From: a virus
Lineage: Duplodnaviria > Heunggongvirae > Uroviricota > Caudoviricetes
Virus record (IMG/VR): IMGVR_UViG_2778261541_000002
Location: 1-6,988 of that record
Reading direction: 5' to 3' (one strand)
DNA length: 6,988 nt
Every line of letters starts with the position of its first letter. The first letter of the stretch is position 1. Of the stretch, positions 1-6,000 are shown one piece after another. Made by a program: the position numbers.

Positions 1-3000
1 GGCGTTTACGGCTTGTTGGGCTTGTTTAATCCAGTAACTGCGGGGCTTTAAGGCGAGTTTTTGAATCTTAAGTTTATCGTTCTGTTTCTGCTCCTCTCGT
101 CGTCGTTTCTTCTCTGCTGCCTTTTCTGCCTTTTCCGCTTTTTCGCGTTCTTTGCTTCGTCGTTCGAGTGCTATCTTGGTTCCACACTCTGGAGAGCACC
201 ACCACTGATTAGCGAATGCAGGGTGAAACCATTCCCGACATTCATCGTTTTTACATCGTCTTCGCGCTGGTTTAGCCATCATCTTCTTCCTCGTGCATCG
301 AGCTATTCGAATCGCTCATCAGCTCTGCGCAGCAGTGCTCACACACGTGAACTTCCAGCACATGCAGCTTCTGACCGCAGTTAGCGCACGTTAAAGCTCG
401 CTCGACGCTTTCTTGTTCGTAACTTCGATTTTGGTCAATCACCTTGTTTTCCTCGCACAATGTCTTAGCCACCGGATATCCCACAGGTGAGCCGTGTAGT
501 TGAAGGTTTTTACGTCAGATTCTTTTGGGATTGGCTTGCGTTTATTTCTGGAGCGTTTCGTTGGAAGGTAATCGGACTTATGTCTGATGCCATTCCGAAA
601 GCACACAAGACCGAAGCAATAAATCTCCAGTCCGTTCTGCTTATCTTCGATTCATGACAGCCAATCATCTTTGCCAGACCGCGCTGGGTAATAGCTGACA
701 GATTGATAAGTAAATCTGTTTCTGCGCGATCAACGTCACGCTGTGATAGTTTGCTGTAACTTGTTCTTTCCATTTCTTAAGATTTCCAATAGTGAATAGT
801 TAGTTGAAAGGTATGCGTGGAAACGCATATGGCCTTAGTTGGTCAGATATCTTGGAACTCGCTTTTCAGCGACGTAGGACGAATGTCCGTTGTTACAAAG
901 AGCGGATCCGCTTATTAAGCGGCTTTATGTTCCGGCGGGAACACGTCATCAAGACTGACTTTTGCGCCTAACTTGTTTAGGCATGCAACAAGAGCACGGC
1001 ATGTTTTAAGGTCTGGGAAGCGACGACCAGATTCCCAATGTCCGATAGCTCCCTGTGTGCATCCAACTGCCTTAGCAAGTGTTGTTTGAGAGATATTCAG
1101 TGACTCTCGATATTTTCGTAGGTTGCTCATATGCCCTCCATAGTAAACACGAATAAAAATACAATATGTACTTTAAGAATACAAGTAAAAATACACATTG
1201 TGCATGGATGGTTCCAGTACAAAGCGTAATAATAAGGACATGAAAATGAAATGGTATGAACTGGCTAGATCCAGAATGAAAGAGCTCGGCATAACTCAAG
1301 AGAAGTTAGCCGAAGAGCTAGGTATGACGCAGGGTGGGATTGGACACTGGTTGCGCGGATCTCGTCATCCATCTCTTAGTGATATTGGTGTGGTGTTTAA
1401 ATACCTTGGTATTGATAACATATCATTCAACCACGACGGGACATTTTCACCTGTTGGCGAATACTCATCGGCCCCAGTTAAAAAACAATATGAGTACCCT
1501 GTTTTTTCTCATGTTCAGGCTGGGATGTTCTCTCCAGAACTCAGAACCTTTACCAAAGGCGATGCGGAGAGATTGGTAAGCACAACCAAAAAAGCCAGTG
1601 ACTCTGCATTCTGGCTTGAGGTTGAAGGTAACTCAATGACCGCACCAACAGGTTCCAAACCCAGCTTTCCTGACGGGATGTTAATTCTGGTTGACCCTGA
1701 GCAAGCTGTTGAGCCCGGCGATTTCTGCATAGCCAGACTTGGTGGTGATGAATTTACCTTCAAGAAACTGATCAGGGATAGCGGTCAGGTGTTTCTACAG
1801 CCACTAAACCCACAATACCCAATGATCCCATGCAATGAGAGTTGTTCCGTTGTGGGGAAAGTTATCGCCAGCCAATGGCCTGAAGAGACGTTTGGGTGAT
1901 GAAACCACTTTTATCTACAATTTACAGGGCGGTAAACATTGGCAAAAATAGATGATTATCAGCCAAGCCAAGTAGAAGTTGATAAAGTACTTTATTGTAA
2001 AAAAATAGTTAACTTTTCTGGCGTTAAATGGAAACAGAAACCAAGTCGCTCTGATATGTGGCTACAAGCTCATATCATCCCCTTGGATGAGGATTGTATA
2101 CCTATACAAGGGCTAAAGTTTGAACTGAAATGGAAACCAGATCAGGATTCAGAACCTGATGACCCGATTTCTTACCCTAAAATAAATATTATTGCTTTCT
2201 ATCATAACAAGAGGGTTTTCGCGGTAGATACCTATCACTTTGACAAACACACGAATAGTTACAAGGTCGATCATCCGAAGTACCAAGATATCATTTACGG
2301 TGCTCACTACCATGTATACTATGAAGAAGCTGGATACTATAGTGATAGAATAGCGTTTCCAATCGAAGATGACATAAACCCAGATGACCTGGTAGGGTAT
2401 TGGAATTACTTCTGTAAACATCTGAACATAACTTACTCTGGGAGAATACCTTTACCGCTTGAAGATGAGTCGGGGCAAATGGGGTTTGGAATATGATGTG
2501 CTCAACAGTGATCTCACAACTAGGTTTCGAATGCCATCCAATAGGCAAGACCTTGAGAATTATCAGTCCATTCACTTACTGTGATGATGGAGAGCATGTC
2601 GGTGCCTTTATCCGTGAAGTCAATGGTAGGTATTTAGTTAGTGACAGATGCGATGCCTTAATGAATATGGAGGCAAGAGGGATCTCGCTTACCAAAAAAC
2701 GACTTGATGAGATACGACAATTACTGCTTAAAGAAGGCGCAGAACTCAATGCTCGAGGAGAAATCATTGCTTGGGCAACAGAAAAGGATGTCGGTGCGAT
2801 TACATCGAACATAATTAGAGCTGGTATACTCGCATCAACTTTGTCGTTAGACTGGTATCAGCCAGTTCAAGCTGAAAAGTTTGAAAGTATGGTTATTGAT
2901 TATCTATATCACACAGAGCTTAGAGACGCACTTTCTCTTCGTGAAAACGTATATGGCTTGAGTGGACATCAAATTACCGTCCCTGTAACAATAAAAACCG

Positions 3001-6000
3001 ACATACCTAAATACGTTTTTACATCAAGCGTGAAACACGGAGGAAGCTGGAATAGTGCTTACTCATTGCTTGGGAAACTAATTGATCTTAAAGCTTCAAG
3101 TGAGGAGTATAACAACAGATTTGTTGTTATAGACAGCGAAGCAATTGGTGATCAAATGCAACAACTCTCCTTACTCTTCCATGAATCAAGCCAAGTTCTA
3201 CCATTCTCCAAAAGAGAGACTTGGATTAAGAGACTTGCAGCATAATACAACCCGGCCTCAGCGCCGGGTTTTCTTTGCCTCACGTTCGCCCACCTAAAAA
3301 CACATAACCAATTATATTTATTGAAAAATAAATAGATGCAACCCACTAAACCACGCAATTCTGATCTCTCCTTACATCGCCGAGACAATACATCCACGCT
3401 AAAAAACAACACTATTAAATACAAAGCGTTATAAAAAACCACGCCAGCTTGCAACAAATTGTATTGATCTTGTAAAGTACATATCGTACTATTTAACCGT
3501 CAGCAGGACGCTGGAAGCCAAATGGAACAGACTGGCAGGCTCTTTAAACAACGTCGACTCTCGACTACGTGGCTGAAAAGCCAGATCACCCAACCACATA
3601 AGCTGTGGGATGCAATGCCGAAGCAACCGTCTCAGGAGGAGCTTCGAGATTGCATCGCCAAAGTTTATTCGGGAGGAATCCATGTCCAGAAAAACAGAAT
3701 TTAAAGGCACCGCAGCTTCTCGCCGTAGAGCTCGTCGCGCAAATCTGCAAAGTCAGGAGGCGATCAGCTCCGACAAGCTACACAGGCCAACCCCTTCACG
3801 AGTGGTCTTGCAATGCAAGCGCAAACCAGCAATGAGAGCAGAAGTGATAACTCTGACAACGTTGACCAGAAAATATGAAGGTTCAACTTGTCTTCCGAAC
3901 GTAGCTCTTTACGCGGCAGGCTACCGGAAATCAAAACAACTGACGGCGAGATGATAAATTCATTTGCTAATTACTTGTTTTTGCCATGCTTATCCTGAGC
4001 GATAAGTTCATCCATAAGGCTGTCTGCCTTCCCGGCAAACCTAATGTAGCACTCATGTCTATAGCTTTCAGGGATAACGAAACGGTCGGTATCAGGATAT
4101 CCAACAGCAGGAGGCCTTCGAACGAGGAGTCCTTTTTTGAGCAATGAAATTGATTCATGAGCTCCCTTTTCCGTTTGTAGCTGGTTATTAGCGGCTACAG
4201 CGAATGCCAAATACGCTCTTTCTCCAAGAGTTAATGAATCAAACAAATCTTGCACATATTTTTCTTCTTTAGATTTGCGCTTCTGAGCAGCGGATACCTC
4301 AATTCTTTCAGTCACAGCGTGATAAGCGGAATTAACAACGCCGTTAAGCACATAGCTAACGCAAAACAACAGGATGTAATACATCCAGTAATGAGGAAGG
4401 ATTTCTGGATTATGCAGGTTTATCCATTCTTTTACGCTTACCGGCATAACAATAATCAATATGATCAGGATGATTAGCATATGAATCAACTGTTTAAGTG
4501 TCATTCCTTGCAGGAAAAAATGCATTAGTTCCTGCCACCATGAGTTGTTCATCGGCGTTTCTCTTTTGCTCTCTGTAGGGGTGAATAGAGTTTATCCGAT
4601 TTCTCGCTGTAGGGGTACATGAGAACCACCGAGCCTGATGTGGTTAAAAGACAGGCACAATCTTTACTACCGCAATCCACTATTTAAGGTGATATATGGA
4701 AGAAGAATTTGAAGAGTTCGAAGAGCATCCTCAGGATGTGATGGAACAATACCAGGACTATCCGTATGACTACGACTATTGATAAAAATCAATGGCGTGG
4801 ACAATTCAAGCGATGTAATGGATGCAAGCTGCAATCGGAATGCATGGTTAAGCCTGAAGAAATGTTTCCTGTAATGGAAGATAGGAAATATGTCGATAAA
4901 TGGGCAATACGAACGACGGCAATAATTGCCAGAGAACTTGACAAACAGAACAACAAGGCTGCCTGATGGTAGCCTTTATCTTTGGCATAAACAACAGAAT
5001 AAACACTGCACTGTGTATTCATTCCAACGAGTGAATACACGGAGCAATGTCGCTCGTAACTAAACAGGAGCCGACTTGTTCTGATTATTGGAAATCTTCT
5101 TTGCCCTCTAATGTGAGGGCGATTTTTTATCTGTGAGGATATGAACAGATGTCAAACATCAAAAAATACATCATTGATTACGACTGGAAAGCATCAATAG
5201 AAATTGAAATCGACCATGACGTAATGACAGAGGAAAAACTTCACCAGATTAATAATTTCTGGTCAGACTCTGAATACCGACTCAATAAACACGGCTCTGT
5301 ATTAAATACTGTATTAATCATGCTGGCGCAACATGCTCTGCTTATAGCAATTTCAAGCGACTTAAATGCATATGGCGTTGTGTGTGAGTTCGACTGGAAT
5401 GATGGAAATGGTCAGGAAGGATGGCCTCCAATGGATGGTAGCGAAGGAATAAGAATTACCGATATCGATACATCAGGAATATTTGATTCAGATGATATGA
5501 CTATCAAAGCCGCCTGAGCGCTGCGTTACCGCATACCAATAACGCTTCACTCGAGGCGTTTTTCGTTATGTATAAATAAGGAGCACACCATGCAATATGC
5601 CATTGCAGGGTGGCCTGTTGCTGGCTGCCCTTCCGAATCTTTACTTGAACGAATCACCCGTAAATTACGTGACGGATGGAAACGCCTTATCGACATACTT
5701 AATCAGCCAGGAGTCCCGAAAAATGGATCAAACAATTATGGCTATCCAGACTAAATTCACTATCGCCACTTTTATTGGCGATGAAAAGATGTTTCGTGAG
5801 GCCGTCGACGCTTATAAAAAATGGATATTAATACAGAAACTGAGATCAAGCAAAAGCATTCACTAACCCCCTTTCCTGTTTTCCTAATCAGCCTGGCATT
5901 TCTCGGGCGATATTTTCACAGCCATTTTAAGGAGTTTATCCATGAACGCTTATTACATTCAGGATCGTCTTGAGGCTCAGAGCTGGGCGCGTCACTACCA

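Follow-up and report, generated by a model that had tools for sequence, protein, structure and literature searches.

A two-gene cassette in the repressor operon of lambdoid prophages as a candidate anti-phage module

The cI-side locus of lambdoid prophages is a variable defence locus, which is occupied by RexAB in lambda; in a different lambdoid prophage it holds HigBAC, a defensive module active against lambda vir and Bas25 (bioRxiv 10.1101/2024.02.24.581848). Here we describe a pair of genes, termed A and B, that lies in the corresponding position of a 6,988-nucleotide (nt) stretch of DNA from a member of the Caudoviricetes (positions 1 to 6,988 of the IMG/VR record IMGVR_UViG_2778261541_000002; henceforth the window), which represents a lambdoid immunity region with cI on the strand shown. 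A first-pass annotation, made from the sequence by itself, had singled out this pair as a candidate novel anti-phage system. Like lambda rexAB, it is a two-gene accessory cargo situated between cI and the immunity terminator and co-oriented with cI. Unlike RexAB, its products match neither Rex protein, display other folds and include no membrane protein, whereas RexB of lambda is a polytopic membrane protein. The evidence inclines us, if not strongly, to the view that A and B form a lysogen-expressed two-protein anti-phage module that rides in the repressor operon of temperate phages. This view builds on the observed reality of the two genes, their obligate pairing, their confinement between repressor and terminator, the exchangeability of the slot and the folds of the proteins, and proceeds by likeness to RexAB, Stk and HigBAC/HicABC, which protect lysogens from the same slot.

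Comparison with other lambdoid phages reveals how sharply this slot is bounded. Homology between the window and phages 933W or mEp506 starts exactly at the terminator (window positions 3248-3251 onward), and positions 3251-3300 are 100% identical to 933W, in which the segment is annotated as 'tM; putative terminator for pM transcript'. Between cI and this terminator, 933W carries L0084, L0083, the kinase gene stk and L0081, and mEp506 carries HicA, HicB and HicC. The cI-to-terminator slot is a swap site with exchangeable cargo, in keeping with the earlier remark that the cI-proximal slot is a home for defence cargo expressed in the lysogen. The stk cluster, HicABC and HigBAC share their insertion site with A-B, before an identical or near-identical terminator, but their proteins are unrelated to A and B, which include no kinase, RNase toxin or SecB-like chaperone. 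No homology to RexA (PF15969) or RexB was found either: a Pfam scan at E-values up to 1 returned only DUF6978 and DUF1828, and the defence-system models of PADLOC gave no Rex match. The exchange of cargo at this position, taken with the literature on the variable defence locus, makes the positional argument well founded, and an inference of defence from such a location is what a specialist would expect.

The distribution of the cassette is that of an optional passenger. Among phage records matching the queried region, 7 of 109 carry A and B, most of the 109 matching only across the terminator, which identifies the pair as accessory cargo. The cassette is ~99.9% identical in phages PhiR57_1, PhiR63_2, ev017 and ev207, and 99.6% identical in a Stx1a phage. 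It is present in full in 239 of 5,426 complete Escherichia coli genomes, with 883 matching some part of the queried region, and the carriers include the probiotic strain Nissle 1917, the type strain of the species and lysogens of Shiga-toxin (Stx) phages. Beyond E. coli, relatives of the pair reside in prophages of Salmonella, Klebsiella, Yersinia, Aeromonas and Pseudomonas.

Sequence divergence over this range leaves little doubt that both genes are genuine. Homologues of B of ~250 amino acids (aa), with 48-84% identity, were recovered from Salmonella, Yersinia, Klebsiella, Serratia, Pectobacterium, Photorhabdus, Providencia, Aeromonas and others, and those of A (~185 aa) share 59-71% identity. 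Between divergent orthologues of either gene synonymous sites are saturated, with a nonsynonymous divergence (dN) of 0.06-0.67; where omega (dN/dS) is measurable, it lies between 0.04 and 0.2. Given these homologues and the low omega, A and B are not chance open reading frames (ORFs). They are real genes under purifying selection.

To define the architecture of the pair, an IMG/VR scan with the alignment of B furnished 80 prophage loci, which together with other fetched loci and the window make up 89 loci linked to cI-type genes. In all 89, A is located directly upstream of B. In one locus (L033, positions 3448-4004) gene A is split into two ORFs by a frameshift beside an intact B, representing either a natural pseudogene or a sequencing error. 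In 67 loci A and B share an ATGA stop/start overlap; the remaining 22 have TAA as the stop of A, with the start of B upstream of it. Gene A begins with GTG in 60 loci, with TTG in 29 and with ATG in none, and the conservation of a non-ATG start across genera suggests that translation of A has been selected to be low or tuned. A co-oriented gene precedes A in 88 of the 89 loci, ending 29-393 nt away. In 72 loci this gene encodes a repressor with helix-turn-helix (HTH) and S24 domains, of very diverse sequence and including HK97-type cI, and in 11 it encodes a short HTH repressor of the Rac type. Five loci (L044-L049, ~3052-3393) have a DUF3024 gene (PF11225, 3e-27) directly upstream of A, in the usual position of the repressor; this small gene may be further cargo. 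On the other side, 88 of the 89 loci have a terminator-like hairpin no more than 120 nt beyond B. The placement of the cassette between cI and a terminator, first noted in the window, is thus a conserved feature, the entire cI-A-B-terminator unit being kept in 88 of 89 loci. Separate look-ups found the same gene order in an Aeromonas caviae prophage and in a Rac-like prophage of Klebsiella.

More distant versions preserve the pair in other surroundings. The Pseudomonas D3-like phage VB_PaD_phPA-G (PP083311) has a CI-like repressor, one extra gene, an A-like ORF and B, the latter two with the ATGA overlap. The A-like ORF (L112, 2983-3504), which overlaps the start of the B-like coding sequence, is unannotated in the GenBank record, and the extra gene between the repressor and the pair encodes a protein of 216 aa with a weak PDC-S48-like match. 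A scan of reference genomes with distant relatives of A uncovered 21 loci in the Burkholderiales (Achromobacter, Bordetella, Roseateles and Accumulibacter; L091-L111); the 20 complete ones among them all have B after A, overlapping it by 4 nt. These pairs lie outside prophages, at a syntenic chromosomal site amid genes for dapA, a site-2 protease, a Sua5/YrdC-like protein and a zinc peptidase; at one of them (L092) an IS66 element is found downstream of the pair. As order and overlap are kept across the prophage, Pseudomonas phage and Burkholderiales loci, A-B is an obligate two-gene module, which in phages is bound to the 3' side of a repressor gene.

Two non-defensive readings of this architecture have to be considered. 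The first is a toxin-antitoxin or addiction module that stabilizes its prophage or island with no useful anti-phage activity. The compact, overlapping two-gene unit, present in prophages and at chromosomal sites and once beside IS66, would suit such a module, as would the weak start codon that its first gene bears universally, which recalls toxin-first modules, and the frameshifted A next to an intact B in L033. We nevertheless consider this quite unlikely: A and B match no known toxin or antitoxin family, neither has a DNA-binding domain of the antitoxin type, and many toxin-antitoxin modules of the cI-terminator slot are themselves defensive, HigBAC being an example, so that the addiction and defence readings are not mutually exclusive. 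The second is a lysogeny-linked factor in DNA transactions or regulation, controlling excision, induction or recombination. It would account for the strict physical link of the pair, in phages of Enterobacterales, Aeromonas and Pseudomonas, with repressor genes that belong to many unrelated immunity types, and the N-terminal domain of B does resemble XisI, which controls excision and has a partner, XisH, that is said to be nuclease-like. However, the likeness to XisI is at the level of fold only (9-13% identity), the cassette is dispensable, in that most phages sharing its flanks lack it and carry unrelated cargo, and the Burkholderiales copies stand outside prophages; this reading is accordingly the most improbable of those we weighed.

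Expression in the lysogen would follow from the position of the pair. The repressor gene is presumed to be the first gene of the lysogenic transcript, and the architecture fits co-transcription of A and B with cI, from the maintenance promoter. A promoter scan gave 8 sites against 14 expected from shuffled sequences, and hence no evidence for an internal promoter. The unit is closed by a terminator with an 8-bp stem (3249-3270) containing 6 G-C pairs and a 6-nt loop, followed by TTTTCTTT; the arms of the stem are AACCCGGC and GCCGGGTT, and they precede a T run. At the other end, an AGGG element resembling a Shine-Dalgarno sequence is read 9 nt before the TTG of gene A.

Protein B is soluble and acidic (isoelectric point, pI, 5.9) and has no membrane-like segment, its maximum 19-residue Kyte-Doolittle hydropathy being 1.19. 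Its AlphaFold2 model (predicted local distance difference test, pLDDT, 85) is a soluble alpha/beta protein with two domains. The N-terminal domain matches the Pfam family DUF1828 (PF08861) with 33.5 bits, above the gathering cut-off of 22, and the same match is obtained with homologues of B from Betaproteobacteria and a Pseudomonas phage. In fold it falls with type III secretion chaperones, YbjN-DUF2170 and XisI, but identity to these is 5-13%, a secretion context is lacking, and B fuses this domain to a nuclease-like one. The latter, the C-terminal domain, has the alpha-beta-beta-beta-alpha-beta core of restriction endonucleases; searched separately with HMMER, it has no Pfam match. In an alignment spanning Gamma- to Betaproteobacteria, the invariant positions are R22, P26, D32, G33, H35, D51, G63 and R70 in the N-terminal domain, and W121, F130, S157, G158, H159, W186, D198, R209 and W244 in the C-terminal domain.

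Protein A is likewise soluble and acidic (pI 5.3, as its composition had suggested on first reading) and consists mostly of beta-strands. It too has no membrane-like segment (maximum 19-residue hydropathy 0.45), so that the earlier remark that neither product looks like a polytopic membrane protein holds for both. A matches phrog_2017 at 6e-67, and its AlphaFold2 model has a pLDDT of 82 and a predicted template modelling score of 0.81. Across the family K22, W31, R92, D97, N106, G121, H123, H125, F158 and P173 are invariant, H104 is nearly so, and a Glu follows 3 or 4 residues past H125 (the E129 region); the C-terminal tail is disordered, yet conserved as ...SGQ..L. The Asp/His/Asn/HxH/Glu cluster looks like a metal-binding or catalytic site, which corrects the initial impression that no catalytic motif was recognizable in the pair. 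Although this cluster resembles cupin motif 1 (GxxxxxHxHxxxE), A does not have the beta-barrel fold of cupins, and a cupin assignment was rejected. A matches the Pfam family DUF6978 (PF22398) weakly (E in the range of ~2-5e-4), with 22 bits, below the gathering threshold of 29.6 and over its C-terminal third only, and 5 of 15 members of the A family match it, at an E-value of 1e-4 at best. NCBIfam yielded no meaningful match for A or B, and sequence-profile searches of the PDB with the alignments A1, A2 and A3 gave nothing significant. An apparent hit of A3 to the designed Kelch protein 8pjr (E 3e-12) was discarded as spurious, as it adds up six identical weak repeats whose independent E-values all exceed 30.

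The pair has already been flagged computationally by two resources. In PADLOC, B matches PDC-M24B over its full length (E 6e-10), while A matches PDC-M24A marginally, at 5e-4 and over residues 104-163 only; other members of the A family reach 2e-4 at best or show no match. Each protein thus matches the corresponding half of a single candidate system, and by these profile scores the A-B pair of the entire clade would be a remote relative of PDC-M24, a two-gene candidate class like itself. The second resource is DefensePredictor (Science 2026, PMC13092281), where the exact sequences of A and B are entered as 'Predicted novel defense gene': WP_000968518.1 (B) with a mean log-odds of 5.64, and WP_001062368.1 (A) with a log-odds of 4.90, or 5.42 in its 3,000-strain set. 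Of the predictions tested in that study, 45% gave a phenotype (PMC13092281). The first-pass description of the pair as novel was thus overstated. Our literature searches found no paper on PDC-M24, and no functional study under DUF6978, DUF1828, the two RefSeq accessions or the names of the phages.

A validated system of related construction is the two-gene DS-6/HipAD of DefensePredictor, the second protein of which has DUF1829, a domain of the PD-(D/E)xK clan that is also assigned to the C-terminal half of B. The two systems differ in that DS-6A is a HipA-type kinase, DS-6B combines DUF1829 with DUF3037 rather than DUF1828, and A has no counterpart in DS-6. The DUF1829 protein was proposed to be an antitoxin-like, DNA-binding partner and not the killer (PMC13092281).

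If the module is defensive, we tentatively favour the following mechanism, in which A is catalytic and B acts as holder and sensor. A and B would be transcribed with cI and translated as a coupled pair that assembles into a complex, with the non-ATG start keeping the level of A low. A would be the catalytic, probably metal-dependent subunit, acting through the cluster formed by D97, H104, N106 and H123-x-H125-x3/4-E, whereas B would hold or regulate A and sense infection. For this, its DUF1828 domain might recognise the conserved tail of A, or else a phage protein, as a peptide ligand, and its degenerate PD-(D/E)xK domain might bind nucleic acid. Infection would then trigger the complex and phage growth would be stopped, probably by abortive infection. 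This assignment of roles is preferred because the invariant polar cluster and the universal non-ATG start point to A as a low-abundance catalytic subunit, and the chaperone-like domain and degenerate nuclease fold of B point to a holder or sensor.

A serious rival, though on present evidence rather unlikely, is a defensive module with the roles reversed, in which the effector would be B, as a variant PD-(D/E)xK nuclease using S157, H159, D198, R209 and D/E214, and A would be a fast-evolving sensor or regulator. PD-(D/E)xK domains are the commonest effector domains of the newly validated DefensePredictor systems, 13 of 31 (PMC13092281), and S157, G158, H159, D198 and R209 do not vary between Gamma- and Betaproteobacteria. 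Moreover, A has 1.5-2 times the dN of B, as expected of a sensor in an arms race. On the other hand, in a mapping of catalytic positions that was made from secondary structure and not from three-dimensional coordinates, H159 occupies the position of the canonical Asp, and strands 2 and 3 are devoid of the conserved acidic residue or Lys of the D...(D/E)xK motif. With the canonical residues missing, the C-terminal domain of B is either a variant nuclease or a non-catalytic module that binds nucleic acid or a partner. The absence of a Pfam match for this domain and the antitoxin-like role proposed for the DUF1829 protein of DS-6/HipAD also count against B as the killer, and a nuclease role for B would leave the invariant His/Asp/Glu cluster of A unexplained.

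Several observations tell against the view that A-B is a defence module with A as its enzyme. The faster evolution of A just cited would suit a sensor-effector arrangement with B as effector, and B does not conserve the canonical PD-(D/E)xK catalytic residues. Comparison of the model of A with known structures found no fold relative, so that A is a putative enzyme by its residue pattern. The neighbours of the Achromobacter and Bordetella pairs are housekeeping genes, with no prophage. PDC-M24 is an unvalidated class, and A proteins from Betaproteobacteria and Pseudomonas show no match to PDC-M24A. In DefensePredictor, the accessions of A and B and the term 'DUF1828' are absent from the full tables of screened units (S6), plaque assays (S7) and validated systems (S8) (PMC13092281), and no experiments on A or B were found in the literature.

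One published experiment on Nissle 1917 might seem to bear on the pair. Bury et al. (2018) reported that a cloned 'phage repressor pr / EcN_1294' of this strain cut the plating of lambda and Stx phages ~200-fold. The 'pr' primers, however, map to the cII gene and not to cI (410-bp amplicon; window ~457-819; L010, 1556-1918), so that this clone does not bear on A and B and was set aside as evidence. The same authors argued that another factor of prophage 3 must contribute to the resistance of Nissle (Bury et al. 2018).

The layout of the window is given in Table 1. The ORF calls agree with the two co-oriented frames of 185 and 250 aa first described, which overlap by ATGA (2493-2496) and are both annotated in RefSeq. 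The short distances around them also stand, with small corrections: the cI-to-A spacer measures 39 nt rather than 40, and the terminator starts 3 nt past the TAA stop of gene B rather than 5. In phage PhiR57_1 the window repressor bears the annotation cI, and in E. coli Nissle it is listed as a LexA family protein. Compared with the HK97/lambda-type cI of another locus (L087, 2702-3415), its C-terminal S24 half is near-identical and its N-terminal HTH differs, indicating a mosaic junction inside the gene. The cassette had been described as visibly AT-rich; its G+C content is indeed 39.5%, lower than that of cI (46.2%) and of the remainder of the window (45.1%), and this difference is real but modest, and not unique to the cassette, given 40.9% in sieB and 38.5% in ea10. 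Downstream of the terminator follow N, sieB, ral, ea10, cIII, kil, gam and bet. The sieB gene, beside N and on the opposite strand, provides a second exclusion function within the immunity region of the window, and a lambda cIII thermoregulator element lies just upstream of the cIII coding region.

Table 1. Features of the 6,988-nt window (positions are those of the window)
Feature	Position	Strand	Evidence or remark
cII	510-773	-	
cro	915-1130	-	
cI-type prophage repressor	1204-1899	+	Pfam HTH_3 and Peptidase_S24, E 1e-28 and 2e-10
Spacer, cI stop to gene A start	1900-1938	+	39 nt, read from sequence
Gene A	1939-2496	+	ORF, 185 aa, TTG start; RefSeq WP_001062368.1
Gene B	2493-3245	+	ORF, 250 aa; RefSeq WP_000968518.1
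B, N-terminal DUF1828 domain	2493-2858 (residues ~1-121)	+	type III secretion chaperone/YbjN-like fold
B, C-terminal PD-(D/E)xK-like domain	2871-3242 (residues ~127-250)	+	restriction-endonuclease-like fold
Intrinsic terminator	3249-3278	+	terminator scan; closes the cI-A-B unit
sieB superinfection-exclusion gene	3971-4552	-	PF14163, 2.5e-22; phrog_1301, 8e-122
lambda cIII thermoregulator RNA element	5577-5635	+	Rfam RF01804, 88.5 bits, E 3e-21

The sequence comparisons present A-B as a robust and widespread candidate defence module within the known class of prophage cargo carried in repressor operons. Its strict repressor-A-B-terminator architecture neatly illustrates how modular cargo is exchanged in nature at one recombination-bounded slot, and the prevalence of the cassette, its presence in Nissle 1917 and the orphan fold of A add to its interest. 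The boldest version of the idea is that A represents a new fold among enzymes, in which a beta-sheet protein uses a metal-dependent D/H/N/HxH/E site to kill or block as part of a new abortive-infection system, and that B, through its peptide-binding domain of secretion-chaperone type fused to a degenerate nuclease fold, restrains it and releases or activates it on meeting a phage protein or DNA. We regard this as unlikely; if true, it would be a defence mechanism with no characterized counterpart, and might explain part of the resistance of Nissle 1917 to lambda and Stx phages. If A-B is defensive in whatever manner, it would add a new protein pair to the immune repertoire of prophages, one member of which is without a known fold relative, and would be of relevance to phage therapy, to the host range of Stx phages and to the engineering of Nissle-based therapeutics.

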